Under the pieces are notes generated by a model. The model saw only the letters and a program-made list of their open reading frames with translations. It had not been told where the DNA came from and did not search any database. A program made the translations under genes and the position numbers. This document shows positions 9,321 through 45,570 of a DNA stretch of 64,000 bases, piece by piece (positions within the stretch are counted from its first letter, which is position 1; each line of letters begins with the position of its first letter). Source of the DNA: Omnitrophica bacterium GWA2_41_15 (lineage in GTDB: Bacteria > Omnitrophota > Gorgyraeia > Gygaellales > UBA12090); contig CAKKRH010000016.1 in assembly GCA_919902675.1 (NCBI GenBank), forward strand, positions 8,789 to 72,788. Reading direction: 5' to 3'.

Positions 9321-10307
9321 ATGAAAACAAAATGGAAGTCAATAATCCATAAATTTTCTAAAGCTAGGGTTTTGGTTATTGGGGATTTAATTTTGGATGA
9401 GTTTATTTGGGGCAAGGTAGACAGAATTTCGCCGGAGGCTCCTGTTCCGGTGGTATTGGTAAACTCCGAGTCGTTTATGCCCGGGGGTGCTTCTAATGTG
9501 GCCAATAATATCGCTTCTTTGGGGGGAAATTCCGGAATCTGCGGGGTAATCGGAGAAGATAAGTCCGGGCGCGTCTTGGTTGAGGAGCTAAAGAAAAAAG
9601 GCGTGGATGTTTCGGGAATAGTAATTGACGGACAGCGGCCGACTACGGTCAAGACCCGCGTTATTGCCCATCATCAGCAGATGGTCAGGGTGGACCGGGA
9701 GAAGATGGGATCTATTGATGACAATATCCTGGAGCAGATTTTGTCTTTTATCCGCCGCAAGATTAATGAAATTGACGCCCTGATTATTGAAGACTACGGT
9801 AAGGGAGTGATTACCCCGCGGCTATTGGCAGAGATAGTGCCGCTGGCCAAAAAACATAAAAAGATAATCACCGTTGATCCTAAGGTAAGCCATTTCCCTT
9901 ATTATCAAGGAGTAACCTGCATTACTCCTAATGAAAAAGAGGCCCAGGGCGGCTCAGGTATTGATATTAAGAATGACGAAGATATTGATAAGGCCGGAAA
10001 GAAACTGCTTAAGGATTTAAACTTGGAAGCGGCGCTGATTACCTTGGGGGAAAACGGGATGCGCTTATTTGAGAAAAGCGGATCGGTTACCCATATTCCC
10101 ACAGTGGCTCAGGAGGTTTTTGATGTCTCAGGTGCCGGAGACACGGTTATTGCCGCTTTTACTCTAGCCTTAGCCAGCGAAGCCACAAAGCGGGAAGCGG
10201 CCTATATTTCCAATTTTGCCGCCGGCATCGTAGTCAGTAAGGTAGGAACCGCCGTGGTAACCAAAGAGGAATTGTTAGAGAGGATAAATCTTAAAGATAA
10301 ATCCTAA
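9321..10307 (+). CDS. hldA: D-glycero-beta-D-manno-heptose-7-phosphate kinase (HldE domain I / RfaE-I, PfkB family)
   Basis: VLVIGDLILDEFIWGKVDRISPEAPVPVV and the PfkB C-terminal motif DVSGAGDTVIAAF. The length (328 aa) fits the kinase domain only. Confidence 0.8.
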   Translation: MKTKWKSIIHKFSKARVLVIGDLILDEFIWGKVDRISPEAPVPVVLVNSESFMPGGASNVANNIASLGGNSGICGVIGEDKSGRVLVEELKKKGVDVSGIVIDGQRPTTVKTRVIAHHQQMVRVDREKMGSIDDNILEQILSFIRRKINEIDALIIEDYGKGVITPRLLAEIVPLAKKHKKIITVDPKVSHFPYYQGVTCITPNEKEAQGGSGIDIKNDEDIDKAGKKLLKDLNLEAALITLGENGMRLFEKSGSVTHIPTVAQEVFDVSGAGDTVIAAFTLALASEATKREAAYISNFAAGIVVSKVGTAVVTKEELLERINLKDKS

Positions 10308-10425
10308 ACCAGAAATCCTAATCCCTAAACAAACCCAAAATCTAAAACATAAAAGTCAAAACTTTTGTTTGGCGCATTTGGATTTTCGTTTTTGAGTTTG
10401 TTTAGAGTTTAGTGTTTAGAGTTTT
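10303..10425 (+). repeat. CTAAACAAA-core long imperfect hairpin element (copy A, after hldA)
   Basis: The left arm is A/C-rich heptamers (taaacca gaaatcc taatccc taaacaa acccaaa…). The right arm is T/G-rich (…gagtttgtttagagtttagtgtttagag). Confidence 0.75.
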
Positions 10426-10452
10426 TCCATAGTAAGTTTGCATGGAGGACAG

Positions 10453-11175
10453 ATGGATGTAATAGGGGTAATTCCGGCACGGTATGGTTCAACCCGTTTT
10501 GAAGGCAAGGTATTAGCCGACATACACGGAAAACCGATGATTCAATGGGTATGGGAAGCGGCAAAAAAAGCCAAGATCTTGGATGAGGTGATTGTTGCTT
10601 GTGATGATAAAAGAATAGAGGAAGCGGTTAAATCCTTCGGGGGCAAGGCAGTTTTTACCTCTAAAGAACATATCTGCGGAACGGATAGAATCTGCGAGGT
10701 GGTAAATCCCTTAGAGGTTAAAGTGATAGTGAATATTCAGGCTGATGAGCCGTTACTGGATCCGGTGATGATTGAGAACGTGGCCCGCCCGCTATTGGAT
10801 AACCCCGCGTTAAATATGGCCACTCTGATGAAAAGAATAGATGGGCCTCAGGAAGCTTCTGACCCTAATGTAGTCAAGGTGCTTACGGATAAAAACGGAT
10901 TAGCCCTTTATTTTTCGCGTTTAGCTATTCCTTATCAACAGGATAAATCTGTCCGCGCGGTCTATTACAAGCACATCGGCCTATATGCCTATACTAAAGA
11001 CTTCCTTTTTATCTTTAAGAATCTTCCTGAATCTTATTTAGAGAAGATGGAAAAGTTGGAACAACTGCGGGTTCTGGAGGCCGGTTTCAAGATAAAAGTG
11101 ATTGAAACCAAAGTTTCGACTATCGGCGTGGATACCCCTGAGGATTTAGAAAAAGCCAAGAAGGTAATTTCTTAA
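10453..11175 (+). CDS. kdsB: 3-deoxy-manno-octulosonate cytidylyltransferase (CMP-Kdo synthetase)
   Basis: VIGVIPARYGSTRFEGKVLADIHGKPMIQWV and IVNIQADEPLL. ATG 10453 follows GGAGG. The ORF track starts it at TTG 10438. Confidence 0.9.
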   Translation: MDVIGVIPARYGSTRFEGKVLADIHGKPMIQWVWEAAKKAKILDEVIVACDDKRIEEAVKSFGGKAVFTSKEHICGTDRICEVVNPLEVKVIVNIQADEPLLDPVMIENVARPLLDNPALNMATLMKRIDGPQEASDPNVVKVLTDKNGLALYFSRLAIPYQQDKSVRAVYYKHIGLYAYTKDFLFIFKNLPESYLEKMEKLEQLRVLEAGFKIKVIETKVSTIGVDTPEDLEKAKKVIS

Positions 11176-11180
11176 AGAAG

Positions 11181-11999
11181 ATGACCAAAGAGATAAAGAT
11201 AAAAGATATAAAGATCGGCGCGGGGAATCCTCTTGTGTTGATTGCCGGGCCTTGCGTGATTGAGAATAAAAAGTTGACTCTTGATACCGCTTGGGCTTTA
11301 AAGGATTTATGTCTGGAAATTGAAATTCCTTTTATCTTTAAGTCCAGCTATGATAAGGCTAACCGCACCTCTTTGGATTCCTACCGCGGCCCGGGCTTAA
11401 AAAAAGGTTTAGAGATACTGAAAGAAGTTAAAGAAAAATTAGGGCTTCCAATCTTAAGCGATGTGCATTGCCGGCAGGATTTAAGAGAAGCGGCTAAGGT
11501 TTTGGATATAATTCAGATTCCGGCATTTTTATCCCGCCAGACCGACCTTTTGACTGAGGTGGCGCGCACGGGAAAGGTGGTTAATATCAAAAAGGGCCAA
11601 TTCCTGGCTCCCTGGGATATGGCTCCTAGCATTAAAAAGATAGAATCAAGCGGTAATAAGAACATCCTGATTACCGAAAGAGGGATTAGTTTTGGCTATA
11701 ATAATCTGGTTTCGGATTTAAGGGCTTTAGCCATAATCCGGGATTTTGGTTATCCGGTGATTTATGATGCTACTCATAGCGTTCAGCTTCCCGGGGGAGG
11801 CGGCAGTTGTTCGGGCGGTGAGCGCCGTTTTGTCCCGGGCCTGTCCCGGGCGGCAGTGGCCTTTGGTTGTGACGGTTTATTCCTGGAGGTGCACCCTGAC
11901 CCTGATAAGGCCCTTTGTGACGGTCCGAATATGGTTTCCTTAAAAGAACTTAAAGCCTTGCTCAAGCAGGTTAAAAATATCGAGAGGGTGTTGAAATGA
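11181..11999 (+). CDS. kdsA: 2-dehydro-3-deoxyphosphooctonate aldolase (Kdo8P synthase), Cys-type (metal-dependent class)
   Basis: PFIFKSSYDKANRTS, IQIPAFLSRQTDL and YDATHSVQLPGG. AGPCVIEN has Cys where non-metallo enzymes have Asn. Confidence 0.9.
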   Translation: MTKEIKIKDIKIGAGNPLVLIAGPCVIENKKLTLDTAWALKDLCLEIEIPFIFKSSYDKANRTSLDSYRGPGLKKGLEILKEVKEKLGLPILSDVHCRQDLREAAKVLDIIQIPAFLSRQTDLLTEVARTGKVVNIKKGQFLAPWDMAPSIKKIESSGNKNILITERGISFGYNNLVSDLRALAIIRDFGYPVIYDATHSVQLPGGGGSCSGGERRFVPGLSRAAVAFGCDGLFLEVHPDPDKALCDGPNMVSLKELKALLKQVKNIERVLK

Positions 12000-12955
12000 T
12001 TCTTAAGCGGGCTAAAGAGGTTTTTAAAATAGAAGCTGAAGCGATAGCCAGCCTCTCTTCCAAGTTAGATGATAATTTCGTCCAGGCGGTAGAGGCGATT
12101 TATAATTGCCGGGGCCGGGTGGTGGTGAGCGGAATGGGTAAAACCGGAATCATCGGCCAGAAGATATCCGCGACCCTCTCTTCCTTGGGGACTCCCAGCA
12201 TTTGGCTGCATTCCGCGGAGGCCACGCACGGAGACTTGGGAAAGGTAACCAAGGATGATGTGGTGATTGTCCTTTCTAATAGCGGTGAAACCGAAGAGAC
12301 TAAAAATTTACTGCCCATACTAAAGAAGATCGGAGCCAGGATTATTGCCATTACCGGAAATAAAAATTCTACCTTAGCCAAATATTCGGATATAGTCCTG
12401 GATGTCTCGGTTAAAAAAGAGGCCTGCACCTTAGGGCTGGCCCCTACCTCATCCACCACCGCCGCCCTGGCCATGGGAGATGCCCTGGCCGTATGTTTGG
12501 TGGAGAAAAAAGGTTTTAAGGAAAAGGATTTTGCCTTATATCATCCCGGGGGGTTATTAGGAAAGAGGCTGCTTCTGAAAGTTGAGGATATTATGCGTAA
12601 AGGAAAAGCCAACCCTATTGTCAAGGAGGAGACCCTGGTCAAGGATGTGCTTTACGCTATTACCGGTTCCCGGGCCGGAGCGGCCTCGGTTGTAGATAAG
12701 TCGGGAAGGCTAAGCGGTATTTTTACCGACGGAGACCTGAGAAGGCATTTAGAGCGCAGCGCGGATTTAGCTTCGCGAAAAGTAAAAGAGGTTATGACTA
12801 AGAATCCTGTTACTATCCACCCGCGGCAATTAGCGGCCGAGGCCTTAAGGATCCTGGAAGAAAAAAAGATTGATGAACTTCCGGTGGTGGATGCGGCGCT
12901 TAAGCCGGTGGGTATGTTGGATATCCAGGATATCTTGCGGGCGGGGCTTGTATAG
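11996..12955 (+). CDS. kdsD: Arabinose-5-phosphate isomerase (SIS domain + tandem CBS)
   Basis: SIS block VVVSGMGKTGIIGQKISATLSSLGTPS and LSNSGETEE, with a C-terminal CBS pair. There is a 4-nt ATGA overlap with kdsA. Confidence 0.85.
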   Translation: MILKRAKEVFKIEAEAIASLSSKLDDNFVQAVEAIYNCRGRVVVSGMGKTGIIGQKISATLSSLGTPSIWLHSAEATHGDLGKVTKDDVVIVLSNSGETEETKNLLPILKKIGARIIAITGNKNSTLAKYSDIVLDVSVKKEACTLGLAPTSSTTAALAMGDALAVCLVEKKGFKEKDFALYHPGGLLGKRLLLKVEDIMRKGKANPIVKEETLVKDVLYAITGSRAGAASVVDKSGRLSGIFTDGDLRRHLERSADLASRKVKEVMTKNPVTIHPRQLAAEALRILEEKKIDELPVVDAALKPVGMLDIQDILRAGLV

Positions 12956-12987
12956 TCCATAGTCGATAGTTGATGGTCCATAGATTA
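12953..12987 (+). repeat. Direct array of 5 heptamers spanning the kdsD stop and the kdsC start region
   Basis: tagtcca tagtcga tagttga tggtcca tagatta. The first TAG is the kdsD stop codon. Confidence 0.8.
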
Positions 12988-13515: not shown

Positions 13516-13530
13516 AGCCGGCAAGCCAAA

Positions 13531-13669
13531 GCCATAAGCCAGAGGGCGATGGTTTGCGTTCCATATAAGCAAAGCCATAAGCCAGAGGGCGATGGTTTGC
13601 ATTCCATATAAGCAAAGCCATAAGCCAGAGGGCGATGGTTTGCATTCCATATAAGCAAAGCCATAAGCC
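13531..13669 (+). repeat. Tandem repeat, 43-bp unit x3.2, each unit self-complementary
   Basis: Units start at 13531, 13574, 13617 and 13660 (partial). The unit is gccataagccagagggcgatggtttgc(g/a)ttccatataagcaaa. The internal dyad is gcaaagccat…atggtttgc. Confidence 0.9.
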
Positions 13670-13697
13670 TTGACAAGGCTTTGAGAGTTGTTATTAT
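13670..13697 (+). promoter_or_regulatory. Sigma-70-type promoter for the lptC/A-like gene
   Basis: TTGACA (13670-13675), a 16-nt spacer, then TATTAT (13692-13697). It directly abuts the last 43-bp repeat unit. Confidence 0.5.
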
Positions 13698-13722
13698 ATT
13701 ATTTCCGAAAAAACCAAAAACT

Positions 13723-15578: not shown

Positions 15579-15582
15579 GTTG

Positions 15583-15674: not shown

Positions 15675-15687
15675 GAAAGGAAAATAA

Positions 15688-16563
15688 ATGAAGGTTGAAG
15701 CCAAAAAATTAGACGCGAGTAAAGTGCAGTTGGATATTGAAGTTCCTCAGGAGACAGTAAAAAAGAAATTTGAAGAGGTGTATGAAAAAGTGGGCAAGGA
15801 AGCCAGGATTCCCGGTTTTCGCCCCGGGAAGGCCCCCAGGGATATATTAGAGAAGCATCACGGCCGGCTGATTCAGGATGAGGTAATCAAGGGTCTTATT
15901 CCTGAAGCCTACCGGGGTTCGATTGAGAGAGAAAAGATTGACGTGGTGGAGATGCCCGAGATAAGCCAGGTAAAATTAGAATCGCATATTTTGTCTTTTC
16001 GTGCGGTGGTTGAGGTAAAGCCACAGATAGAAATCAAGGATTATAAAAACATTAAGCTTAAATATAAAAAGATAGCTGTCGGGCCGCAAGAGATCGATAA
16101 GTCTTTAGACAGTTTTAAAGAAAGCCATAAAATATCCGCTCTTGACGATAAATTTGCCAAAGGTTTAGGTTATGCCGCGTTAGCTGATATGCGCGCCTCT
16201 ATCGAGCGCAGGCTTCTGACGCAAAAAGAGGATGAATTGAGGCGCCAGCTTCAAGAGGACCTGCTTAAGCAGATTTTAGATAAGGCGCGCTTTAGGGTTC
16301 CTCCGTCTTTGATTGCCCAGCGTTTGGAAGAATTAGTAAAGGATGCCAAGGTTCAGCTGGCCATCAGGCAGGTGCCCAGGGAGCAGATTGCCTCCCACGA
16401 TGAGAAGCTAAGAAAAGAACTCTCGCCTGAGGCCGAGTCTCAGGTTAAGACATTCTTAGTCTTAGAGGAAATCGCCAAAAGGGAAAATATAACCGATGCC
16501 GAACATTTAACTCAAAGAACAATTGAGTTTTTGTTAAGTGAAGCCAATTGGGTTGAAGAATAA
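15688..16563 (+). CDS. tig: Trigger factor lacking the central PPIase domain
   Basis: The N-terminal ribosome-binding signature GFRPGKAP is present. Residues ~150 onward (LDDKFAKGLG…RFRVPPSLI) match the start of the TF C-terminal domain directly. At 291 aa versus the usual ~430, no FKBP segment fits. Confidence 0.75.
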   Translation: MKVEAKKLDASKVQLDIEVPQETVKKKFEEVYEKVGKEARIPGFRPGKAPRDILEKHHGRLIQDEVIKGLIPEAYRGSIEREKIDVVEMPEISQVKLESHILSFRAVVEVKPQIEIKDYKNIKLKYKKIAVGPQEIDKSLDSFKESHKISALDDKFAKGLGYAALADMRASIERRLLTQKEDELRRQLQEDLLKQILDKARFRVPPSLIAQRLEELVKDAKVQLAIRQVPREQIASHDEKLRKELSPEAESQVKTFLVLEEIAKRENITDAEHLTQRTIEFLLSEANWVEE

Positions 16564-16570
16564 GTGAAGC

Positions 16571-16708
16571 TAAACCCTAAATCCGAAACCCTAAACTCTA
16601 AACAAACTAAAAATCATAAACTCGAAACTCAAAATAAATGTTTAAGATTTGGAGAATTTGGATTTGGGTAGGATTTGTTTAGGATTTAGAAGTTAGTGCT
16701 TAGGGTTT
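16571..16708 (+). repeat. CTAAACAAA-core long hairpin element (copy B, after tig)
   Basis: The outer 9 bp are perfect (aaaccctaa / ttagggttt). The core ctaaacaaa pairs with tttgtttag. The left arm has 3 G in ~70 nt and the right arm has 1 C. Confidence 0.8.
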
Positions 16709-16748
16709 ACCGTGCTATTAACAAAAACTTATAAGTAACGGAGGTAAA

Positions 16749-17358: not shown

Positions 17359-17451
17359 TTTAGTTTATAGAGTTTATTGAGTTTATAGAGTCTATTGAGT
17401 TAAGCTCAAAATAACTCAACTCAACAAACTCAAGCAACTCAATTAACTATA
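17359..17451 (+). repeat. Low-complexity hairpin built from ~9-mers, arms in inverted polarity (T/G arm first)
   Basis: Left arm agtttatag agtttattg agtttatag agtctattg. Right arm ctcaacaaa ctcaagcaa ctcaattaa. Located after clpP. Confidence 0.6.
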
Positions 17452-20245: not shown

Positions 20246-20249
20246 GAGA

Positions 20250-20329
20250 GAGCAATTGAGCAATCGACAATAGAACAATAGACAAGAAAAAAGCTCAATT
20301 GCGGTCTATTTTCTATTGTTCAATTGTTC
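20250..20329 (+). repeat. Low-complexity hairpin built from ~8-mers
   Basis: gagcaatt gagcaatc gacaatag aacaatag … gtctatt ttctatt gttcaatt gttc. Nested pairs: aatagac/gtctatt, aatagaa/ttctatt, gagcaattg/caattgttc. Confidence 0.6.
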
Positions 20330-20413
20330 AAAAACTTCTGTAACAATGTAGTAGGGGTCTGTGGCATAAATTGTTGACTCCGCTTGAATGACGCATTATC
20401 TATTTTCTAGTCA

Positions 20414-21576: not shown

Positions 21577-23388
21577 ATGAGCTTGCGGCTAAAGGTTGAA
21601 TCTAAATTTCAAATTTTAGGAATTTTATCTCTGTCCTCTGTCCTCTGTTCTCTGTTTTCTGGTTATTGTTTCGCTGAAAAGATAACCATTCTTTACACCG
21701 GAGGAACCCATGCCGCGCTCTATCATTGTGATTGTCCTCACCAGCCGGACGGCGGAGTGGCCAGGAGAATGACTAAGGTCAAAGAGCTGCGCAAGGAAAA
21801 TCCTGATACTATTCTGGTGGATGCCGGAGGGTTTTTTGCCGCAGGAGAGCTGGATGAGCACAGTCAAGATGCTCAACTGGATAAAGCGCGCACCGAAATT
21901 AACCTGAAGGCCCTTGAGCTTATGGGCTATGATGCCGTGGCTGTCGGTGATGATGAATTTAACTTTGGCCGGGATTATTTATCCGCTCAAGCCAAAAAAT
22001 CAAGGATTGCCTTTTTATCCTGCAATCTGAAGATGGATGGCCTTAAGCCTTATCTGATTAAGAAAGTGTCCGGCCTTAACGTCGCTCTTATCGGCTTAAC
22101 TAATCCTCAAGTTAATGCCAAGTCGGCTGGATTGGAGGCAGGAGACCCCTATCAGGCTTTAGCCAGAACTATTTCAGAGGTCAAGAGAAATAAGGCCGAT
22201 GTGGTGGTAGTTTTAAGTTATCTGGGGGAAGAAGAAGATACTAAGCTGATTACCCAGATTGACGGCGTTGATGCTATTATTTGCGCCAAGCCTCAGGATA
22301 CTCAAGAGCCTTTCAGTAAAATCGGCAAAGGCCTCCTGGTCCGGGCCTCCCGGCAGGGCAGGCGTTTAGGAAAATTGGATATTGAATTAGAGAATAAGAA
22401 GATAAAAGAGACCAGGGTGGAGGATATCCGCTTATCTAAAGAAATAGCCGATTGGCCCCAGCTAAAAAAGCAAGTGCCGGCCTGTTTTGAGGATTCCGCC
22501 TGCCGCAAGGAAGGCTTAGTCGGTAAATGCCTTAATCCCGGAAAGATAAGTTCTTCTTGCGCTTATGAGAAACCCAAACAGATTTCTCTTTTGGTTATTC
22601 AGCCTAAGGATATAAAAGTCCTTCACCAGGAAAAATTTTTAAGCTTCTTAAGAAAGCTTTTTCCGGGGCTACAGGTTAATTTTATTGATTCTGATTCCGC
22701 ACCCGGTAAATCCTGGATAGTAAAAACTCAGGCAAAACTTTTACCAGTGTATCTGATTGCCAAGGACGTGGATACGCAAGGCGAATTCAAGGATATCAAG
22801 GATTTTGCCGAATTAAAAGATGATTATTATTGTTTAAGCCCGCGGCTTTCCGGCGGTTTGATATTCATTGGCCGGCCCAGGATAGCTAATACATTAGATG
22901 TCTTTATGGGAACTAAGGGTAATAAAGGCTCAGAGGTTTTATCCTTGTTAAGAGACCTCCGGGCCGGGCATAAAGAATTGGGTATTAAACTGCATTATTT
23001 GGCAATTGAGACTCAAAATGGTTTCGCCGCGCCCGCAGGCATAGCGGAATTAGAAGAGGATATGAGGCAGGTTTGTATCGCTAAATATCAGCCGGATAAG
23101 CTCTGGGATTACGCTCTCTGCCGTTTTAAAAACCAGGATAGTTCCTGGTGGGAGATTTGCGCCGAGCAGTTTGGGATTAATCCGGCAGCGATCAAGAAAT
23201 GCGCTCTTTCTCAAGAAGGGCTGGATTTATTAAGAGAAAACACCGCCTTGAACAAAGAGTTGGAAATGTCCATCGGGCCGGTGTTTTTGGTGAATAATAA
23301 TGAGGTATACGCGGCTAAAAATTTCAGCCGGGTTGAGGAGTTGGAAAAACTTTTAGGCTTAGCACCCGCGAAAAAAGATAAGGATTAA
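21577..23388 (+). CDS. Secreted protein: degenerate metallophosphoesterase/5'-nucleotidase-like N-half, Cys-rich thioredoxin/DsbA-like C-half
   Basis: ILVDAGGFF and MGYDAVAVGDDEFNFG resemble calcineurin-type blocks but lack the GNHE His. The C-terminus (…CALSQEGLDLLRENTALNKELEMSIGPVFLVNN) resembles a DsbA-family tail. Weak call. Confidence 0.35.
   Translation: MSLRLKVESKFQILGILSLSSVLCSLFSGYCFAEKITILYTGGTHAALYHCDCPHQPDGGVARRMTKVKELRKENPDTILVDAGGFFAAGELDEHSQDAQLDKARTEINLKALELMGYDAVAVGDDEFNFGRDYLSAQAKKSRIAFLSCNLKMDGLKPYLIKKVSGLNVALIGLTNPQVNAKSAGLEAGDPYQALARTISEVKRNKADVVVVLSYLGEEEDTKLITQIDGVDAIICAKPQDTQEPFSKIGKGLLVRASRQGRRLGKLDIELENKKIKETRVEDIRLSKEIADWPQLKKQVPACFEDSACRKEGLVGKCLNPGKISSSCAYEKPKQISLLVIQPKDIKVLHQEKFLSFLRKLFPGLQVNFIDSDSAPGKSWIVKTQAKLLPVYLIAKDVDTQGEFKDIKDFAELKDDYYCLSPRLSGGLIFIGRPRIANTLDVFMGTKGNKGSEVLSLLRDLRAGHKELGIKLHYLAIETQNGFAAPAGIAELEEDMRQVCIAKYQPDKLWDYALCRFKNQDSSWWEICAEQFGINPAAIKKCALSQEGLDLLRENTALNKELEMSIGPVFLVNNNEVYAAKNFSRVEELEKLLGLAPAKKDKD
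21629..21656 (+). repeat. In-CDS array of 4 heptamers (ctctgtc x2, ctctgtt x2)
   Basis: It lies in the signal-peptide coding part of the 21577 ORF (…LSLSSVLCSLFS…). Confidence 0.85.
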
Positions 23389-24729: not shown

Positions 24730-26211
<1,482 letters not shown>

Positions 26212-28348: not shown

Positions 28349-29515
28349 ATGAAAGATAGTATCGCTAAAAAAGTCCGGGATATGCGGCCTTCGGGGATAA
28401 GGGCGTTTTTTGACCTGGTGCTGGGGATGAAGGATGTTATATCTTTGGGGGTGGGCGAGCCGGATTTTGCCACTCCCTGGAGCATCCGGGAATCAGCGAT
28501 ATTCTCTCTGGAACAGGGTTGGACCAGCTATACCTCAAATAAGGGCCTGATGAAACTGAGGATGAGTATTTCCCGTTTTCTTAAGCACCATCACGGACTC
28601 GCTTATAATCCTGAGGATGAAATTTTAGTAACTGTGGGGGTGAGCGAGGCCCTGGATCTGGCGGCGCGCGCGATTTTAAATCCCGCAGATAAGGTCTTGA
28701 TTCCTGAACCTTGTTATGTTTCCTATGGCCCGGTAAGCGCTTTAGCCGGGGGAGAGCCGGTGTATATCTCAACCGCCAAGTCTAATTTTAAACTCCGGCC
28801 GGCGGATATCGAGAAAAACTGTGATGCTAAAACCAAAGCTATAATTTTTAATTATCCCTCTAATCCTACGGGAGTTTCTTATACCAAGAAGGAATTAGAG
28901 GAAATCAAAAAGGCAGTTTTAAAACATAATCTGATTATGATCAGCGATGAGGTGTATGATGAGCTGACCTATGATTTTAAACATGTTCCTTTCGCCTCGC
29001 TATCCGGAGCAAAAAACAATACCCTTTATCTGAACGGTTTTTCTAAAAGCTACGCCATGACCGGCTGGCGGGTGGGATATGCCTGCGGCCCCAAAGAGAT
29101 AATCGCGGCAATGACCAAGATTCATCAGTATACCATTATGTGCGTGTCCACAATCAGCCAGATGGCATCCTGTGAGGCTTTGCAAGGAGCCGGTAAAGCG
29201 GTTAGTGAAATGAGGCGGGAATACCAGAGGAGGAGAGAGCTTGTGGTAGATGGCCTAAACCGGATGGGGCTAAAGTGCCTTAAGCCCCAGGGGGCCTTTT
29301 ACGCCTTTGCCTGCGTAGAAAGCACAGGCTTAAGCTCAATGGATTTTTGCTCCCGGCTTCTCAAGGAACAGAAGGTGGCGGTGGTTCCGGGAAATGCCTT
29401 TGGAGATTCGGGAGAAGGCTATATCCGGATTTCCTACGCCTCAAGCCTGGAGAACCTGCGCGAGGCTTTAAGCAGGATAGAGGTGTTTTTAAAGAAGTTA
29501 GAGGTTGGGAGTTAG
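28349..29515 (+). CDS. Class I/II PLP-dependent aminotransferase (aspartate aminotransferase-like)
   Basis: NYPSNPTG and the PLP-lysine block [16 protein letters not shown]. The last codons and the stop lie inside a heptamer array. Confidence 0.85.
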
Positions 29516-29538
29516 AAGTTAGGGGCGGGAGGTTGATG
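29497..29538 (+). repeat. Direct array of 6 GTTNNNN heptamers spanning the aminotransferase C-terminus and stop
   Basis: gttagag gttggga gttagaa gttaggg gcgggag gttgatg. The stop TAG (29513-29515) lies in unit 3. Confidence 0.8.
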
Positions 29539-29997: not shown

Positions 29998-30003
29998 ATA
30001 AGC

Positions 30004-30059
30004 CTTCAGCTGTCAGCCTTCAGCTTTCAGCTGAGAGCTGATAACTGAAAGCCGACAGC
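30004..30059 (+). repeat. Heptamer-phased intercistronic hairpin (diverged copy)
   Basis: cttcagc tgtcagc cttcagc tttcagc | tgagagc tgataac tgaaagc cgacagc. It is preceded by TAAATAAGC and followed by tgataa + ATG 30066. Confidence 0.8.
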
Positions 30060-30065
30060 TGATAA

Positions 30066-30365
30066 ATGTCTACTATACGTAAATTGGTTGAGGAGTCGCA
30101 TAAAATCGCCCGGGAAAAAGGCTGGTGGCAGAACGAAAGGAATGATGCCGAGTTGATCGCTCTTATGCATTCGGAGCTTTCCGAGGCCCTGGAGGCGATG
30201 CGCAATCACGCCAGGACCGAAGAAGTTGCCGAGGAACTGGCAGACTGCTGTATCCGGATATTTGATTATTGCGGGGCCCGCGGCATAGACCTGCAGGGCG
30301 CGATTAAAAAGAAGATAGCCAAAAACCGCGCCCGGCCCTATCGCCACGGGAATAAGAAGTTTTAA
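30066..30365 (+). CDS. Small MazG-like nucleotide pyrophosphohydrolase
   Basis: 99 aa, with LMHSELSEALEA and EELADCCIRIFDY (E-x2-E…E-x2-D metal motif). Confidence 0.6.
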   Translation: MSTIRKLVEESHKIAREKGWWQNERNDAELIALMHSELSEALEAMRNHARTEEVAEELADCCIRIFDYCGARGIDLQGAIKKKIAKNRARPYRHGNKKF

Positions 30366-30448
30366 CCAGCATGGAACATCACGTGTAACTACGCAATATA
30401 ATTTGTGCGTGGTTCCGCGTCTAGTTCCGCGCAATTTCTGCGATTTAA

Positions 30449-30742
30449 ATGTTTATTCACTCCATATTATTCGAGATCGCGCCTGAAGAACAGGCAAAAT
30501 ACAAGCAAGACTGCAAGATGTGGGCCGCTTATGCCGCAAAGGCCAAAGGTTTTATCCGTTATATGACCGTGAAGCGGCTTGACCATAAGAATCAATTCGC
30601 CTCGGTTTATGAATGGAGGGCGAAAAGCCTTCACCAGGCCTTTATGAAAAAATACCATGATTGGCTGGTGGGTAAATCCCTGGCCAGGGTTAAGGTTTTG
30701 GGGTACTATAATCTTAAGACAATAGATGAAATTATTAGATAA
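30449..30742 (+). CDS. Antibiotic-biosynthesis-monooxygenase-like (Dabb fold) small protein
   Basis: 97 aa. Size and pattern (IHSILFEI…FIRYMTVKRLD…FASVYEWRAKSLHQAF) fit the ABM domain. Weak call. Confidence 0.4.
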   Translation: MFIHSILFEIAPEEQAKYKQDCKMWAAYAAKAKGFIRYMTVKRLDHKNQFASVYEWRAKSLHQAFMKKYHDWLVGKSLARVKVLGYYNLKTIDEIIR

Positions 30743-30750
30743 ATACAAAA

Positions 30751-30868
30751 TAAACCCTAAACCCTAAATCCGAAACCATAAACAAACTCAAATGTTTAAA
30801 AACCCAAAACAAAAAAACATAAAATTCTTGTATTGTGGGTTTATGACTTTGGATTTGTTTAGAATTTT
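30751..30868 (+). repeat. CTAAACAAA-core long hairpin element (copy D, after ABM-like ORF)
   Basis: taaaccc taaaccc taaatcc gaaacca taaacaa actcaaatgt … ggatttgtttagaatttt. Confidence 0.75.
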
Positions 30869-30942
30869 CCCACCTATAGTCAATCAGAAGGCGGGATCTC
30901 GCTCTGGCGAGAAGAGTTTAGCGTTTATTTTGAGTAACCGCG

Positions 30943-35281: not shown

Positions 35282-35336
35282 TAGGCGGGACATTCTTGTC
35301 CCGCCGTCGGGGCGGGGTTAGAAAACCCCGCCTATC
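35282..35336 (+). repeat. GC-rich double-hairpin repeat, copy 2
   Basis: taggcgggacattcttgtcccgccgtcggggcggggttagaaaaccccgcctatcc. Orientation matches copy 1, and only the inter-hairpin linker differs. Confidence 0.85.
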
Positions 35337-35380
35337 CTGAGTTCTGTAATAACTTTTTATTGACACATTTATAATTTCTC

Positions 35381-37839: not shown

Positions 37840-37971
37840 AAACTCTAAACCCAAAACCCTAAATTCTAAACAAACCCAAATGTTAAAACCCAAAATCAAA
37901 AACGGCTGTTTAGTGTTTTGGGTTTCTGGTTTTGGATTTGTTTAGGATTTAGGATTTAGGATTTAGGATTT
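37840..37971 (+). repeat. CTAAACAAA-core long hairpin element (copy E, between amt and glnB), right arm ends in 4 perfect AGGATTT
   Basis: …taaattc taaacaa acccaaatgt … ggatttgttt aggattt x4 (37944-37971). It abuts the glnB SD. Confidence 0.8.
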
Positions 37972-38378: not shown

Positions 38379-38426
38379 AAGGGTCGATAGTCAATGGTTA
38401 AGATTGACTATTGACTATCGACCCTT
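38379..38426 (+). repeat. Perfect 17-bp-stem hairpin made of heptamers (gtcgata gtcaatg … ttgacta ttgacta tcgaccc)
   Basis: aagggtcgatagtcaat / attgactatcgaccctt are exact reverse complements. Located between glnB and glnN. Confidence 0.8.
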
Positions 38427-38456
38427 TATTATTTACTATTCTAATAGGAGGAGGAA

Positions 38457-40649: not shown

Positions 40650-40672
40650 TTCAGACGAATATGTTTTCTCGT

Positions 40673-40747: not shown

Positions 40748-40748
40748 C

Positions 40749-40777
40749 TTGCCTAAAGCCTAAGTATGAGATATTAT
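40749..40777 (+). promoter_or_regulatory. Putative gltB promoter
   Basis: TTGCCT, a 17-nt spacer, then TATTAT, just after the glnN terminator. Confidence 0.4.
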
Positions 40778-40809
40778 AGAAAGTCAAAAGTTAAGAGTCA
40801 AAAACTAAA

Positions 40810-43800
40810 ATGAAGAGACGACAAGATTTGGAAAAATACGGTTTGTATGATTCCCGTTTTGAGCATGATTCCTGCGGGGTGGGGTTTGTCTGCGATGTTA
40901 AGGGGAGAAAATCCAATTCCATCGTTCGCCAGGGACTAAAGGTGCTTAAGCGGCTTTCTCATCGCGGGGCAACCGGGGCGGATCCCAAGACCGGGGACGG
41001 GGCTGGAATTTTGATCCAAACCCCGCATCAATTCTTCCTCAAGATTGCCCATCAGGCCAGGATCCGGCTTCCTGACTATGGGGAATACGGCTCTGGGCTG
41101 GTTTTTCTGCCGGCTAATCCTAAGGAACGCAAGTTTTGTAAGGATGCCTTAGCTAAGATCATTAAGGATGAGGGGCAGTTTTTGCTTGGCTTTAGGGCCG
41201 TGCCGGTGGATAATTCGGATATCGGGGTGAGCGCTCAAAAGACCCAGCCGGTGATTGAGCAGGTGTTCATAAGAAGGGTCGCCAAGCCGCCAAGTCGCCA
41301 AGTCGCCAAGCAAGACGATTTAGATTTTGAGCGCAGGCTTTATGTTATCCGCAAACAGGCCGAAAATATCATCCGCGCCTCTAAATTAAAACAAAAATCC
41401 TCTTTTTATATCCCCAATCTTTCCAGCCGCACCTTTTCCTATAAAGGGCTGTTGATGCCAGAGCAGGTGGATAGTTTCTTCCCGGACCTGCTGGATGAGG
41501 ATGTTCAGAGCGCGATCTGTCTGGTTCATTCCCGCTATTCCACCAATACCTTTCCCACCTGGGACCTGGCCCAGCCTTTTCGCTTCCTGGCCCATAACGG
41601 CGAGATAAACACCTTGCGGGGGAATATCAGCTGGATGTCTGCCCGGGAAGGCCTCTTAAAAAGCGGGCTCTTCGGCAAAGACATAAATAAGCTCAAGCCG
41701 GTGATTGTCCCGGGGGGCAGTGACTCCGCGGCTATTGATAACGCCTTTGAGCTTTTGGTATTGGCCGGCAGGCCCATTGAGCAGGCGATGATGATGCTTA
41801 TTCCGGGTGCCTGGGAACAGCATAAATTAATGGATGAAAAGCTCAAGGATTTTTATAAATACCACGCCTGTTTTATGGAGCCCTGGGACGGCCCGGCGGC
41901 TATTGCCTTTAGCGACGGGATAAGTATCGGGGCAGTCCTGGACAGAAACGGCCTGCGCCCGGCGCGCTATATTGTAACTAAAGATGATCTGGCGGTGATG
42001 GCCTCGGAGGTGGGGGTGCTGGATGAGATTAAGCCTTCAGACATCGCGCTCTCCGGCAGGCTTGAGCCGGGGAAGATGTTTTTTATTGATACCCTTCGGC
42101 AGAGGATCATCCAGGATGATGAGATTAAGGAAAAGGCCGCCAGCCGAAAGCCTTACGGTGACTGGCTTAAAGATAACCTTCTGGAGTTTGATAAGCTCCC
42201 CGCCGCAAGGCTGAAAGCTGAAAGCAGAAAGCTGAAAGCTGGTGAAGATGTTTTGCTTCTCCTAAATGCCTTTGGCTACACCCGTGAAGACTTGAAGCTC
42301 ATCCTAAAACCTATGGCTGAAGAGGGCAAAGAGCCTATCGGCTCAATGGGCAATGATGTGCCTCACGCGGTGCTCTCCAGGTATCCCCAGATGCTTTATA
42401 CATATTTCAAACAGCTCTTTGCCCAGGTAACCAACCCGGCCATTGACCCTATAAGGGAAGAATTGGTGATGAGCCTGTTTAGCTTTGTGGGCGCTCAGAA
42501 AAATATCCTGGAGGAAACCCCCGGACACGCGCGTAAGCTTTTAGTCAAAGAACCCATCCTTAGTAACGAGGATTTGGCCGGGATCCGAGGCCTCAACCCC
42601 GCCCTTTCTTACTATGAAGATACGCCTGGAAGAGGAAAGGGCGGGGTCAAGGAAAAAGGCTTTAAGAGTAAAGGCGTTTCCATACTTTTTAATGTTGAGG
42701 ACGAAAAGGATTTTCTTAAAACCTTGAATAAGGTCTGTCAGGAGGCAGTCGCGGCTATCCGGCAGGGATACAGTTTTATTATCCTAAGCGATCAGGGGGT
42801 AAATAAAAAGCGCGCGGCCTTGCCGGCCCTTTTGGCTGTGGGGGCAGTGCATCATTACTTAGTCAAAAAGGCCCTGCGCACCCAGATTGGGATCATTCTG
42901 GAAACTGCTGAACCACGGGAGGTGCATCATTTTGCCTTGTTGTTTGGCTATGGAGCGGATTGCGTTAATCCTTACCTGGCCTATCAGTCTCTGGCCTATT
43001 TAATCTCCGAGGGGCAGTTGAATTTGGATTATGCCAAGGCCTTGAATAATTACCGCCACGCCCTGGATACCGGGATACTCAAGATACTTTCCAAGATGGG
43101 TATTTCTACACTTCAGAGTTATCGCGGGGCCCAGATATTCGAGGCCTTGGGGGTGGGGCTTGAGGTTATTGATAAATGCTTTTGCGGGACTGTTTCGCGC
43201 GTTGGGGGCGCGGGTTTTAGCGAGATTTGCGCTGAGTCTTTGCTAAGGCATAAACAGGCCTTTGGCGAAGGGTCTCTCAATGCCCCTTACCTGTTAAGCG
43301 GAGGCGTTTACCAGTGGAAACGCGACGGTGAATACCACCTTTGGAATCCGGATACTATTGCCAGTCTCCAGGATGCCACCCGTCTTGGCGATTACAAGAA
43401 ATACAGGGAATTCGCCAATCTTATTAATGACCAGTCTAAAAATCCGGCGACCTTGAGAAGCCTGCTCAAATTCAAGTCTGTCAGGCCTATTCCGATTGAG
43501 AAGGTGGAGACGGCAGAAAATATCTTTAAGCGCCTGGCTACCGGGGCAATGAGCTTTGGTTCAATTTCAAGAGGGGCGCATGAGAACCTGGCCATCGCCA
43601 TGAACCGCTTAGGCGGCCGTTCCAATACCGGAGAAGGCGGGGAGGATCCTGCCCGGTTTAAGCCGCTTGCTAACGGAGATTCCAAAAGAAGCGCTATTAA
43701 GCAGGTAGCCTCCGGCCGTTTCGGGGTAACTACCAATTATTTGGTCAATGCCGATGAAATCCAGATTAAGATTGCTCAGGGGGCTAAGCCCGGTGAAGGG

Positions 43801-45429
43801 GGACAACTCCCCGGCCACAAGGTCAGCGTAACTATCGCCAAGACCCGCTATACCACACCAGGGGTGACCCTGATTTCTCCTCCTCCGCACCACGATATTT
43901 ATTCCATTGAGGACCTGGCCCAACTCATTTTTGATTTAAAAAACGTTAATCCCCGGGCGCGTATTAGCGTAAAATTAGTTTCAGAGATCGGCGTAGGCAC
44001 TATTGCCGCCGGGGTAGCCAAGGGCCACGCGGATATGATCCTGATTTCCGGCGCAGACGGAGGCACTGGAGCCTCGCCAATGAGCTCTATTAAGCACGCC
44101 GGACTGCCCTGGGAGCTGGGGATTTCCGAAACCCATCAGACCCTGGTCTTGAATGACTTAAGGAGCCGGGTGCGCCTGCAGACCGATGGCCAGATGCGCA
44201 CCGGCCGCGATGTGGCCATTGCCGCGATATTGGGGGCGGAGGAATACGGATTTTGCACCGCGGCCCTGATTATCTCCGGGTGCGTGATGCTCAGACATTG
44301 CCATTTAAATACCTGTTCTGTGGGGGTGGCTACCCAGGATGAGATCCTGGAAAAAAGATTTCGCGGCCGGCCGGAATACTTAGTGAATTATTTTCGTTTT
44401 GTGGTTAGCGAACTGCGGGAGATTATGGCTTCCCTGGGAGTAAGCCGGATGGAGGATCTGATCGGCCACACCGAGCTCCTGGAGCTTAATTCCGCGATCC
44501 TGCCCTGGAAGGCCAGGAATATAGATTATTCGCGCATCTTGTATCAGCCGAAAGTACCCAAGACCGTAGGCACGTATTATCAGATGAAGCAAGATCATGG
44601 TATAGATAAGGTCCTGGACCGTAAGTTAATTGATCTGGCTAAGCCAGCATTGAAAGAGGCCAATCCGGTAAAGATAGAGCTTCCAATAGAGAATGTCCAT
44701 CGCACTGCCGGGGCAATGCTAAGCGGAGAGGTTTGTAAGCGCTATGGCGAAGAGGCTTTGCCTGACGGCACGATCCACTGTAAATTTAAAGGCACAGCCG
44801 GTCAGAGTTTCGGAGCTTTCCTGGCTAAAGGGATTGTCTTTGAGCTTGAGGGCATGGCTAACGATTATGTGGGTAAAGGCGCATCCGGAGGCCGGATCAT
44901 CATTTATCCGGATAAATCCGCGGGGTATAAGCCGGAGGAAAACATCATTATCGGTAACACTACCTTCTATGGGGCTATTACCGGTGAGGCCTATATCCGG
45001 GGCCTGGCCGGAGAAAGGTTTTGCATTCGTAACTCCGGCTTGTTCGGGGTGGTGGAAGGTGTGGGCGACCACGGATGCGAGTATATGACCGGCGGACGGG
45101 TGGTGATCCTGGGTAGGACCGGGAGGAATTTTGCCGCCGGGATGTCCGGCGGGATCGCCTATGTCTATGACGCCGTGGGTGATTTTAAGAATAAATGCAA
45201 TATGGAGATGGTGGCTTTGGAGGCGGTTTCGCTTGAGGATGAGTTGACGATTACAGACTTATTACATAACCATCATAAATATACCAATAGCCTTTTAGCC
45301 AAGAAGGTGCTGGATAATTTTAAGGAAGAGCTAAAAAATTTTATTAAGGTGATGCCTCTTGAGTACAAGCGGATCCTGGAGCAAGAGAGGCTGGAGAAGA
45401 AGATGAAATTAACCGAAGTATCAGATTGA
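40810..45429 (+). CDS. gltB: Glutamate synthase large subunit
   Basis: Ntn amidotransferase start …HDSCGVGFV, FMN region GAKPGEGGQLPG, and Fe-S Cys cluster CVMLRHCHLNTC. 1539 aa. Confidence 0.95.
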   Translation: MKRRQDLEKYGLYDSRFEHDSCGVGFVCDVKGRKSNSIVRQGLKVLKRLSHRGATGADPKTGDGAGILIQTPHQFFLKIAHQARIRLPDYGEYGSGLVFLPANPKERKFCKDALAKIIKDEGQFLLGFRAVPVDNSDIGVSAQKTQPVIEQVFIRRVAKPPSRQVAKQDDLDFERRLYVIRKQAENIIRASKLKQKSSFYIPNLSSRTFSYKGLLMPEQVDSFFPDLLDEDVQSAICLVHSRYSTNTFPTWDLAQPFRFLAHNGEINTLRGNISWMSAREGLLKSGLFGKDINKLKPVIVPGGSDSAAIDNAFELLVLAGRPIEQAMMMLIPGAWEQHKLMDEKLKDFYKYHACFMEPWDGPAAIAFSDGISIGAVLDRNGLRPARYIVTKDDLAVMASEVGVLDEIKPSDIALSGRLEPGKMFFIDTLRQRIIQDDEIKEKAASRKPYGDWLKDNLLEFDKLPAARLKAESRKLKAGEDVLLLLNAFGYTREDLKLILKPMAEEGKEPIGSMGNDVPHAVLSRYPQMLYTYFKQLFAQVTNPAIDPIREELVMSLFSFVGAQKNILEETPGHARKLLVKEPILSNEDLAGIRGLNPALSYYEDTPGRGKGGVKEKGFKSKGVSILFNVEDEKDFLKTLNKVCQEAVAAIRQGYSFIILSDQGVNKKRAALPALLAVGAVHHYLVKKALRTQIGIILETAEPREVHHFALLFGYGADCVNPYLAYQSLAYLISEGQLNLDYAKALNNYRHALDTGILKILSKMGISTLQSYRGAQIFEALGVGLEVIDKCFCGTVSRVGGAGFSEICAESLLRHKQAFGEGSLNAPYLLSGGVYQWKRDGEYHLWNPDTIASLQDATRLGDYKKYREFANLINDQSKNPATLRSLLKFKSVRPIPIEKVETAENIFKRLATGAMSFGSISRGAHENLAIAMNRLGGRSNTGEGGEDPARFKPLANGDSKRSAIKQVASGRFGVTTNYLVNADEIQIKIAQGAKPGEGGQLPGHKVSVTIAKTRYTTPGVTLISPPPHHDIYSIEDLAQLIFDLKNVNPRARISVKLVSEIGVGTIAAGVAKGHADMILISGADGGTGASPMSSIKHAGLPWELGISETHQTLVLNDLRSRVRLQTDGQMRTGRDVAIAAILGAEEYGFCTAALIISGCVMLRHCHLNTCSVGVATQDEILEKRFRGRPEYLVNYFRFVVSELREIMASLGVSRMEDLIGHTELLELNSAILPWKARNIDYSRILYQPKVPKTVGTYYQMKQDHGIDKVLDRKLIDLAKPALKEANPVKIELPIENVHRTAGAMLSGEVCKRYGEEALPDGTIHCKFKGTAGQSFGAFLAKGIVFELEGMANDYVGKGASGGRIIIYPDKSAGYKPEENIIIGNTTFYGAITGEAYIRGLAGERFCIRNSGLFGVVEGVGDHGCEYMTGGRVVILGRTGRNFAAGMSGGIAYVYDAVGDFKNKCNMEMVALEAVSLEDELTITDLLHNHHKYTNSLLAKKVLDNFKEELKNFIKVMPLEYKRILEQERLEKKMKLTEVSD
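41279..41310 (+). repeat. In-CDS array of 4 octamers (tcgccaag / ccgccaag) in gltB
   Basis: tcgccaag ccgccaag tcgccaag tcgccaag, encoding …VAKPPSRQVAKQ…. Confidence 0.85.
42212..42239 (+). repeat. Right-arm-only GAAAGC heptamer array inside the gltB reading frame
   Basis: tgaaagc tgaaagc agaaagc tgaaagc, with the ATAAGC tag 16 nt upstream (42191-42196). It translates as …DKLPAARLKAESRKLKAGE…. Confidence 0.8.
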
Positions 45430-45433
45430 AAAG

Positions 45434-45570
45434 AAACACTAAACACTAAATTCTAAATCCTAAACAAATCCAAAACACAAAACCATAAACCTAAAACATA
45501 TTTTTGTTTTGAGTTTCTAACTTTGGGTTTTGAGCTTGTTTAGAGTTTAAGATTTAGAGTTTAGGGTTTT
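45434..45570 (+). repeat. CTAAACAAA-core long hairpin element (copy F, between gltB and gltD)
   Basis: …taaacac taaattc taaatcc taaacaa atccaaa … gagcttgtttagagtttaagatttagagtttagggtttt. It ends 8 nt before the gltD ATG. Confidence 0.8.

Follow-up and report, generated by a model that had tools for sequence, protein, structure and literature searches.

The window analyzed here is the whole 64-kb stretch of a contig that comes from a Hainich groundwater metagenome and is assigned to Omnitrophica bacterium GWA2_41_15. Between its genes lie six long hairpins, called the TAAAC family below, each with an A/C-rich left half of (T/G)AAANNN heptamers and a T/G-rich right half that is approximately its reverse complement, with CTAAACAAA in the left half and TTGTTTAG in the right. 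They are probably gene-less, and presumably non-autonomous, copies of a small selfish element resembling the intervening sequences (IVSs) of rRNA. A profile hidden Markov model (HMM) trained solely on copies from outside the window finds exactly six (E-values 1e-13 to 1e-26) and no others in the 64 kb; all six lie in gaps downstream of forward-strand genes, as a first-pass annotation of this DNA had reported. The HMM match limits (10299-10424, 16573-16708, 24732-24877, 30753-30867, 37841-37970, and 45435-45568) differ by only a few bases from the coordinates of that annotation. Matches cover model positions of about 2-133, or 2-113 in copy D, the shortest and most degraded of the six, whose outer right arm is truncated. 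The copies and their flanking genes are:

10299..10425, + strand: copy A, gene-less, between a pfkB-family kinase gene and a kdsB-like cytidylyltransferase gene (nhmmer E=1.5e-21 on +, 8.9e-21 on -)
16572..16709, + strand: copy B, gene-less, between tig (trigger factor) and clpP (nhmmer E=2.1e-21)
24731..24878, + strand: copy C, gene-less, between a homocitrate-synthase-like gene and purA (nhmmer E=1.6e-23)
30752..30868, + strand: copy D, between two small accessory open reading frames (ORFs; MazG-like, ABM-like) and an HD-domain gene (nhmmer E=8.7e-14 on +, 2.1e-15 on -)
37840..37971, + strand: copy E, gene-less, between amt (ammonium transporter) and glnK (P-II) (nhmmer E=1.6e-25 on +, 4.6e-26 on -)
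45434..45570, + strand: copy F, gene-less, between gltB (glutamate synthase large subunit) and a gltD-like small subunit gene (nhmmer E=3.3e-23)

The family consensus is about 134 nt long, with sharp ends (5'-AAAYYCTAAAT…ATTTAGRRTTT-3'): on either side of the core, conservation holds at about 0.9 out to a distance of exactly 26 nt and there falls to about 0.35. The core itself is non-periodic, with a phase shift relative to the heptamers. All six window copies have it, as CTAAACAA on the left and TTGTTTAG on the right, with ATAAACAA on the left in copy D. The first-pass claim that a core motif is conserved in every copy fails for copies D (ATAAACAAA on the left) and F (CTTGTTTAG on the right). 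The motifs listed there, YCTAAACAAAYYCAAA(TGT) and CAAATG(T/A), are explained as the inner end of the inverted repeat plus a relic start codon. Both strands of the window together hold 10 occurrences of CTAAACAAA, against 0.94 expected from shuffles.

The arms are stems of about 60 bp in the window, AT-rich and with no required T-run, in spacers with a GC content of 0.26-0.32. They are nearly free of G on the left (0-4 G per half) and of C on the right (1-5 C), and the outermost pairs are perfect over 10-11 bp each in copies B and C; on both points the earlier description holds. The 7-nt period is supported by Tandem Repeats Finder and by alignment, and the number of heptamers is fixed, while the heptamers within one copy differ from each other. 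Each arm stays near its own consensus, drawn from a limited set of C-N-A-A-N-N-N heptamers, and does not follow changes in the other; among copies, adenines are conserved best. TAA in the left arm and TAG in the right recur every 7 nt, closing all three frames within 21 nt from either side and on either strand. Small GC-rich palindromes, such as CCTGCCTACCGGCAGGCAGG, are nested at heptamer boundaries in the arms of some family members elsewhere (L065 3104-3127, L007 about 700-730, also L041, L077, and L107), and are alike in two genomes of the Candidate Phyla Radiation (CPR); from their sequences, a still smaller element seems to insert into TAAAC-family arms.

Half of the window copies retain a relic ATG. 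In copy C it lies at 24771-24773, 6 nt downstream of the core (24757-24764); in copy D at 30792-30794, with the left core at 30778-30785; and in copy E, the best-paired of the six, at 37880-37882, again 6 nt past the core (37866-37873). It is absent from copies A, B, and F. The stop codon TAA of the pfkB-like gene (10305-10307) is inside copy A, and the next ATG follows the 3' end by 18 nt in copy E and by 7 nt in copy F. The genes 3' of copies B and E have their own GGAGG sites outside the element, that of glnK being GAGGAGG.

The complete form of the element, about 470 bp long, consists of two CNAA-NNN heptamer arms around one gene for a four-helix-bundle protein of about 120 aa belonging to PF05635 (S23p, homologous to Avd). 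In the short form the two arms are retained, together with the core CTAAACAA…TTGTTTAG and a few codons from the start of that gene. On a Parcubacteria contig (L065), the HMM gives two oppositely oriented half-matches around a small ORF: a TAAAC-family left arm, an ORF of 111-120 aa, and a TAAAC-family right arm. The ORF product is a PF05635 “23S rRNA intervening-sequence protein” (53 bits; cutoff 33.8). Its homologues number at least 8000 at E <= 1e-5, many of them 65-72% identical and carrying names from different phyla. Thirty were aligned, and 80 metagenome loci were chosen by protein similarity alone, 78 of them with both flanks. The hairpin model matches directly beside the ORF in 70 of these 78, and in 54 the two flanks pair as a strong inverted repeat. 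Complete elements are mostly 453-552 bp long (median 471 bp), with a single ORF. Its ATG stands exactly 6 nt past the left core in 44 of 50 cases, and the codons that follow, ATGACCGAAATTCAAAATTCAAAAC (MTEIQNSK…) at the start of the gene, correspond to the inner part of the left arm in short hairpins. Outside the window, a relic ATG stands at the expected position in 23 of the 144 short copies matched by the pattern. We infer that the short copies, which outnumber gene-carrying ones by about 40:1 in the sampled loci, are deletion derivatives of the gene-carrying form.

PF05635 genes are also found between heptamer arms of other sequence. In one related Omnitrophota contig (L137), the pfkB/kdsB spacer, which is empty in another (L129), holds (GTAACCA)x3, a PF05635 ORF, and (CTGGTTA-like)x6; L058 is likewise of TAACCAG type, and L069 of GAATATC type. 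Heptamer-array arms therefore look general to PF05635 elements. No rRNA was found in 20 sampled gene-carrying loci, and neither a reverse transcriptase nor a template/variable repeat pair adjoins the PF05635 genes of the elements. The structure of a relative of the PF05635 protein has been solved (PDB 2rld, with five chains).

How widely the family is distributed was estimated from a scan in which each prokaryotic species was represented by one genome; the pattern was CTAAACAAAYYMAAA and TTGTTTAG separated by 45-75 nt, with 23 positions in all (20 fixed bases and 3 two-fold degenerate). The scan returned at least 117 genomic stretches, where about 2 are estimated by chance at uniform base composition, and bases beyond the searched pattern are likewise conserved. 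Among the matches listed, the consensus occurs in more than 100 genomes, metagenome-assembled genomes (MAGs) of more than 20 bacterial phyla. Hosts include Omnitrophota, Planctomycetota, many CPR/Patescibacteria lineages, Dehalococcoidia and other Chloroflexi, Nitrospirae, Desulfobacterota, Gammaproteobacteria, Bacteroidota, Acidobacteria, Aminicenantia, Elusimicrobia, WOR-3, Cloacimonadota, Verrucomicrobia, Latescibacterota, Saganbacteria, and Ignavibacteriales. There is also a copy in a Methanophagales archaeon, between rpl2 and rps19 of a ribosomal-protein operon; this is probably no binning error, because the operon's proteins have archaeal sizes. The sampled loci contain 169 copies in 0.9 Mb, and the window contains 6. 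Mean identity between copies is 0.80 within one genome and 0.74 between phyla.

Ten viral contigs are among the matches, eight of them in one tailed-phage group (L119, L122-L128; IMG/VR) that has 3-4 TAAAC-family copies between structural genes (portal, SU10/HK97-like capsid, adaptor). A contig of a Dehalococcoidales MAG (L063) shares genes of this group, which suggests Dehalococcoidales as its host. With so few viral contigs, most of a single group, phages were rejected as the vector: the element enters phages and is not specific to them. No literature description of a TAAAC-type family was found, searches with sequence strings included; coverage of the literature was incomplete, and the novelty of the family is provisional.

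Copies insert into, or persist only in, transcribed spacers between genes. Among 137 copies, the flanking genes are co-directional for 79, convergent for 23, and divergent for 13; the median gap is 10 nt to a flanking stop codon and 11 nt to a flanking start codon, and in a quarter of cases the flanking stop codon is inside the element. Operon-internal spacers holding copies include tig/clpP, amt/glnK, gltB/gltD, those of a macAB-type operon, and the archaeal rpl2/rps19, all in operons that are normally co-transcribed. The terminator or insulator function put forward in the first-pass annotation is therefore unlikely. In the macAB-type case, a Moranbacteria contig (L037), each of the four spacers of a macA-macB-ftsX-ftsX operon contains a single copy, whose 5' end overlaps the TAA upstream; the next ATG lies 5-12 nt past the 3' end, and the terminal heptamer includes an AGGA.

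Gene-less copies occur in both orientations with respect to the flanking genes, so that an orientation check proposed with the first-pass annotation did not come out in favor of a directed element: 34 are co-oriented and 39 opposed by the asymmetric core pattern, and 20 and 13, respectively, when oriented by the relic ATG. The PF05635 ORF, in contrast, is co-directional with its upstream neighbor in 54 of 57 cases (p = 4e-13; 54:3 versus 20:13, Fisher p = 8e-5). The gene-carrying form would thus rely on read-through from the host operon, and short copies may spread independently or survive both ways round.

Syntenic contigs of related Omnitrophota (Tig identity 96%, 66%, 64%, and 50%) allow some estimate of turnover. 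None of the four contains a TAAAC-family copy. In the relative with 96% identical Tig, sites A, B, and C are all empty of the family. The pfkB/kdsB spacer, 130 bp with copy A in the window, is 28 bp in L129 and 19 bp or an overlap in other relatives, and the spacer between the homocitrate-synthase-like gene and purA is without the family in L129, L131, and L133. The spacers are too diverged for these empty and filled sites to fix an exact insertion point. At tig/clpP, each of five Omnitrophota (Tig 66-97% identical) has a different periodic hairpin:

Window, 16564-16748: TAAAC type
L129, 10877-10941: TCAGC/GAAAGC
L137, 10877-11028: AATAACC/GGTTATT
L139, 1317-1418: AATGACA/TGTCATT
L131, 4000-4120: CGTTTAC/GGTAAAC

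To judge from these sequences, the spacer appears to be subject to remarkably fast turnover or repeated colonization. Two candidates for closer relatives with copy B, P0002 and P0006, turned out to be of the L137 type and to carry a different hairpin.

In the interpretation preferred here, the copies are best seen as tolerated parasites, not host regulators, and a host benefit need not be assumed. Insertion at or just past the end of a gene would add only a few residues to the upstream protein, and the downstream gene would keep or receive a ribosome-binding site; such insertions may be tolerated because stop codons close all frames within 21 nt. Transcribed either way round, the element would fold into a long imperfect hairpin of four paired and about three variable bases, repeated. 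By analogy with rRNA intervening sequences, RNase III would most likely cut this hairpin, splitting or trimming the operon transcript. As for mobility, a best guess is that the heptamer arrays are candidate binding sites for a PF05635 protein supplied in trans.

Several observations weigh against this interpretation. The window has no PF05635 homologue by tblastn. No target-site duplication or conserved target motif was found in the flanks of 137 copies, and no transposase or recombinase recurs among the 906 neighboring ORFs of 127 loci, which cluster into housekeeping families plus one phage structural module. The PF05635 protein (Avd, S23p) has no known catalytic activity, and it could be cargo instead of a mobility factor. 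Protein similarity tracks the arm variant (CTAA/CGAA) only weakly (0.652 versus 0.633); with identity differing by just two points, co-evolution of protein and arms was dropped as a proposal. The direction of descent could also be the reverse, an older hairpin having captured the gene in its loop, and RNase III cutting of such imperfect stems is a prediction by analogy. The identities between copies carry no signature of a recent burst; the pattern suits constraint to a consensus, which could mean function. In addition, several relatives have a periodic hairpin of some kind in these same spacers, which could reflect selection for a hairpin there.

Another possibility, though an unlikely one, is that the hairpins are host-selected cis-acting RNA elements: partial terminators or attenuators, 3' exonuclease barriers, or translational couplers hiding the downstream ribosome-binding site, with any mobile-element ancestry secondary. 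All six copies fold far beyond shuffled sequence (z-scores -2.1 to -9.7), as do both strands. The first-pass annotation had argued from the G-poor and C-poor arms for function in the + strand RNA, but an inverted repeat with A/C on the left and T/G on the right looks alike after reverse complementation, so that arm composition is uninformative on strand. Wobble-compatible arm mismatches in the window copies number 16 on the + strand and 30 on the - strand (330 and 324 over 137 copies), and the - strand RNA, not the + strand, is the more stable in all six (copy E: minimum free energy -48.4 kcal/mol on +, -56.6 on -). Covariation, the other sign of RNA function proposed there, is missing by three routes. 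No compensatory change was found in 124 aligned copies, of which RNAalifold retains just 8 invariant core pairs; in the 34-pair outer stem 81.0% of cells pair, slightly under the 82.3 ± 0.3% obtained with partners shuffled among sequences, with a covariation score of 0.098 versus 0.114, lower than every shuffle; and a separate anchored test put arm matching slightly under chance at the most variable positions. Neither the window nor 12 + 20 loci gave a match to any Rfam family at its gathering threshold, and a search of copy E at permissive E-values gives only sub-threshold plant microRNA-precursor hairpins, i.e., generic long hairpins; on this and the missing covariation, an Rfam-type structured cis-regulatory RNA was rejected. 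What stands of the earlier RNA-level proposal is that the long hairpins in transcribed spacers do make up a true family, for which an effect on mRNA processing or stability is plausible. The stop and start codons within about 10 nt of copies, the macAB-type operon of L037 with one copy in each spacer and an ATG 5-12 nt past its 3' end, the presence of some tig/clpP hairpin in each of five related Omnitrophota, and the closeness to one consensus across phyla would all fit a cis-acting role. Random orientation does not, nor do the three empty sites of three in the 96%-identical relative and the pfkB/kdsB spacers of 19-28 bp, or overlap, elsewhere. A GC-rich stem followed by a T-run is lacking, the genes after copies B and E have ribosome-binding sites of their own outside the element, and the element is common to bacteria, an archaeon, and phages, which we take to differ in expression machinery.

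A DNA-level role in recombination, replication, or chromosome structure, with the heptamers arrayed as protein-binding sites (for a PF05635 or nucleoid protein, possibly as a cruciform), seems more doubtful still, and overlaps with the mobility step proposed above. It would account for arms that keep their own sequence of C-N-A-A heptamers and not their mutual pairing, and for both orientations being found; the five chains of the PDB 2rld relative and the short subterminal repeat arrays that mark element ends for several transposases (Ac/Ds, Tn7-type) can be counted in its favor. Binding of the arms is conjecture, however, the 7-bp period mismatches the DNA helical repeat, protein similarity and arm variant are only weakly correlated, and the 54:3 agreement of gene-carrying copies with host transcription points to RNA or expression. 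Least probable of all, and by a wide distance improbable, is that these are local simple-sequence arrays grown by polymerase slippage on heptamers and then strand switching, with no common descent. The genome is rich in heptamer arrays, coding regions included, and has several unrelated heptamer hairpins of the same layout; heptanucleotide repeats are moreover the commonest long simple repeats in many prokaryotes, according to a passage in PMC4679880 that cites Mrazek 2007. Slippage-grown arrays are nevertheless excluded by the constant length and heptamer number, the sharply defined ends, and a core that is itself non-periodic and shifts the phase of the heptamers. The relic start codon, one consensus of about 134 nt shared by more than 100 genomes from over 20 phyla, and the 70 of 78 loci in which these arms flank a conserved gene also stand against them. 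The first-pass annotation had held that folding of both strands, random orientation, and absent covariation would together mean plain simple repeats; all three were found, yet that alternative is also wrong. Slippage may still contribute to the origin and variation of the arms.

Among known systems, the gene-carrying form of the element is closest to the rRNA intervening sequences that contain an S23p ORF. The Coxiella IVS is 428-444 nt long (about 470 bp here); its terminal inverted repeats form a stem, which RNase III cuts, and the loop holds an S23p ORF (PMC4990558). Coxiella and Leptospira rRNA IVSs together span about 430-760 nt, the S23p ORF begins not far from the 5' stem, and how they arose and move is unexplained (PMC4990558). 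The TAAAC elements have the same terminal inverted-repeat stem, the same single PF05635/S23p loop ORF starting near the 5' stem, and the same sporadic distribution suggestive of horizontal spread (PMC4990558). They differ in lying between protein-coding genes instead of in helix 25 or 45 of 23S rRNA, in having heptamer arrays for arms where the IVS stem is a plain 28 bp, and in being represented in the window by gene-less derivatives only. No rRNA, and so no helix 25 or 45 insertion, was found in the window or near copies; PF05635 ORFs are also present in CPR rRNA insertions. Short ORF-less IVSs, as in Salmonella, Campylobacter, and others, resemble the window copies: they too are hairpins, about 100-150 nt long, within a transcribed molecule, and RNase III removes them without harm to the host. 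Their place is in rRNA helices, and neither heptamer-built arms nor an occurrence of about one per 10 kb across a genome is known for them; this comparison is by description only.

The enterobacterial repetitive intergenic consensus (ERIC, or intergenic repeat unit, IRU), the Correia elements of Neisseria, and repetitive extragenic palindromes (REP) with their paired form (REPIN) are also imperfect palindromes of about 100-150 bp, in many copies within transcribed intergenic DNA, often operon-internal, and in both orientations. Co-transcribed Correia hairpins can be RNase III substrates, and REP and ERIC can affect mRNA stability. ERIC is like the TAAAC family in being conserved across genera with no known transposase. 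Each of these three, however, is confined to one family or genus, where the TAAAC family extends over more than 20 phyla and an archaeon, and we know of no PF05635-carrying full-length form or heptamer-array arms in any of them. Correia elements make TA duplications, of which none were seen flanking TAAAC copies. REPINs go with a REP-associated tyrosine transposase (RAYT); no such Y1 (IS200/IS605-like) gene recurs in the 0.9 Mb of TAAAC-bearing loci, and the REP/REPIN candidate was rejected. Terminal inverted repeats and many dispersed copies are those of a classical miniature inverted-repeat transposable element, but with no target-site duplication in 137 copies, and a parent ORF (PF05635) that is not a known transposase, that class was set aside as well.

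The heptanucleotide short tandemly repeated repetitive (STRR) arrays of cyanobacteria and the TAACTGA repeats of Beggiatoaceae, cyanobacteria, and Bacteroidetes likewise have a 7-nt intergenic unit, often few nt from start codons, and a patchy cross-phylum distribution suggesting horizontal transfer (PMC4679880). These are direct tandem repeats of variable copy number (in the Maribeggiatoa genome, 169 sets are direct and only one is indirect; PMC4679880), unlike the fixed-length inverted pair, unique core, and gene-carrying form of the TAAAC element. A heptanucleotide simple sequence repeat (STRR or long simple sequence repeat, LSSR) was accordingly rejected: the period is 7, but the heptamers differ, their number is fixed, and the ends are sharp. 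The PF05635 family includes Avd, the accessory protein of diversity-generating retroelements (DGRs; PMC10053308). Unlike a DGR, the TAAAC element has one ORF and neither a neighboring reverse transcriptase nor template/variable repeats. DGR adenine-specific mutagenesis would give the opposite of the conserved adenines. Intrinsic terminators were rejected on the stems of about 60 bp, AT-rich, with no required T-run, and inside operons. The idea of integron attC sites arose from the alternation of genes and hairpins in L037, and was dropped because the L037 genes form a macAB-type efflux operon. The attC consensus, R''/R' = RYYYAAC … GTTRRRY, is misfitted by the cores CTAAACA / GTTTAGR, there is no integrase, and housekeeping operons lie between copies 6-8 kb apart.

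The TAAAC family is one of several periodic hairpin families in the window, where at least 8 further spacers have hairpins of other 7-9-nt units. One is about 56-64 nt long, with (N)NTCAGC x4 on the left and GAAAGCY x4 on the right, and lies directly past the stops of + strand genes:

1749-1808: TCAGC/GAAAGC hairpin
3898-3952: TCAGC/GAAAGC hairpin
5834-5896: TCAGC/GAAAGC hairpin
30001-30062: TCAGC/GAAAGC hairpin

It is also found in the L129 tig/clpP spacer, and not in the 127 loci of other organisms. Further periodic hairpins lie at 17362-17442, 20249-20331, 38379-38426, and about 47330-47440; types seen in the window include a 9-mer pair (AGTTTATAG/AACTCAACA), GAGCAAT/TAGACAA (also in the L129 homocitrate synthase/purA spacer), and AACCAAN/GGTTGTT (“CCAA” type, also at tig/clpP in L137 and homocitrate synthase/purA in L138). 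A further type, TCGATAG/TTGACTA, has a T-rich, terminator-like tail, and the glnK-glnN spacer has a 20-bp stem with a T-rich tail at 38379-38436; given this stem and the GC-rich hairpins in other spacers, the first-pass statement that only glnN has a classical terminator was too strong. Heptamer tandem arrays occur in or at the ends of coding regions as well (42210-42241 in gltB, 4441-4469, 21628-21661, 12952-12983, and 29493-29522). The gltB array, (GCTGAAA)x4.6, is translated as ARLKAESRKLKAGE, and its unit is that of the right arm of the TCAGC/GAAAGC hairpins. These arrays suggest that the genome as a whole tends to form or tolerate such heptamer repeats. Another of its small dispersed repeats is a GC-rich double hairpin, GGCGGGACATTCTTGTCCCGC … GGCGGGGTTAGAAAACCCCGCC, in two long spacers (8133-8190 and 35284-35338), and a 43-bp unit is repeated 3.3 times with 99% matches at 13527-13669, past a kdsC-like gene.

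Some small genes at these loci may also be noted. The MazG-like (99 aa) and ABM/DUF4937-like (97 aa) ORFs next to copy D lie within 29998-30942, between yqeY and the HD-domain gene; with a TCAGC/GAAAGC hairpin on one side and copy D on the other, the pair resembles a hairpin-bounded gene cassette. In L137 (6741-7515; also L136 and L222-L224), two small genes are found between kpsF and kdsC of a lipopolysaccharide-precursor operon, a toxin-antitoxin-like pair of a 78-aa ORF and a DUF6036 nucleotidyltransferase-like gene that is in neither the window nor L129. The trigger factor upstream of copy B (15688-16563) is a protein of 291 aa with N- and C-terminal domains and no peptidyl-prolyl isomerase domain by Pfam; all listed Omnitrophota homologues have this short form. 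Its sequence is identical to that of a trigger factor annotated in a Candidatus Omnitrophota MAG.

A broader and more tentative proposal, which we consider possible but not likely, is that PF05635 genes in heptamer-array inverted repeats, together with gene-less hairpins, form an unrecognized class of cross-domain mobile elements specialized for transcribed spacers, in which the Avd-like protein binds the arrays and promotes spread. Such a class would use spacers between cistrons and also rRNA helices, where its members are known as IVSs. Spread might be through an RNA intermediate freed by RNase III and copied by a reverse transcriptase in trans. If this is true, IVSs, the scattered “four helix bundle protein” genes, and some heptamer-repeat hairpins of uncultured bacteria would be one phenomenon.

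IVSs in rRNA and S23p/PF05635 ORFs have been known for about 30 years, with origin, mobility, and protein function unexplained (PMC4990558). What is new here relative to the rRNA IVSs is the location between genes, the heptamer-built arms, the abundant gene-less derivatives, and the host range. An IVS-like element that is abundant outside rRNA, with clear ends, two forms, insertion polymorphism, and hundreds of variants, makes the old IVS question testable. It would also account for a share of the AT-rich, telomere-like spacers in Omnitrophota, CPR, Dehalococcoidia, Planctomycetota, and others, which are otherwise liable to be annotated as terminators or regulatory RNAs. Shared at about 75% identity by bacterial phyla and an archaeal ribosomal-protein operon, a sequence of about 134 nt may serve as a marker of horizontal traffic among uncultured subsurface microbes, and an element tolerated in either orientation in essential operons offers a natural model for intercistronic inserts.

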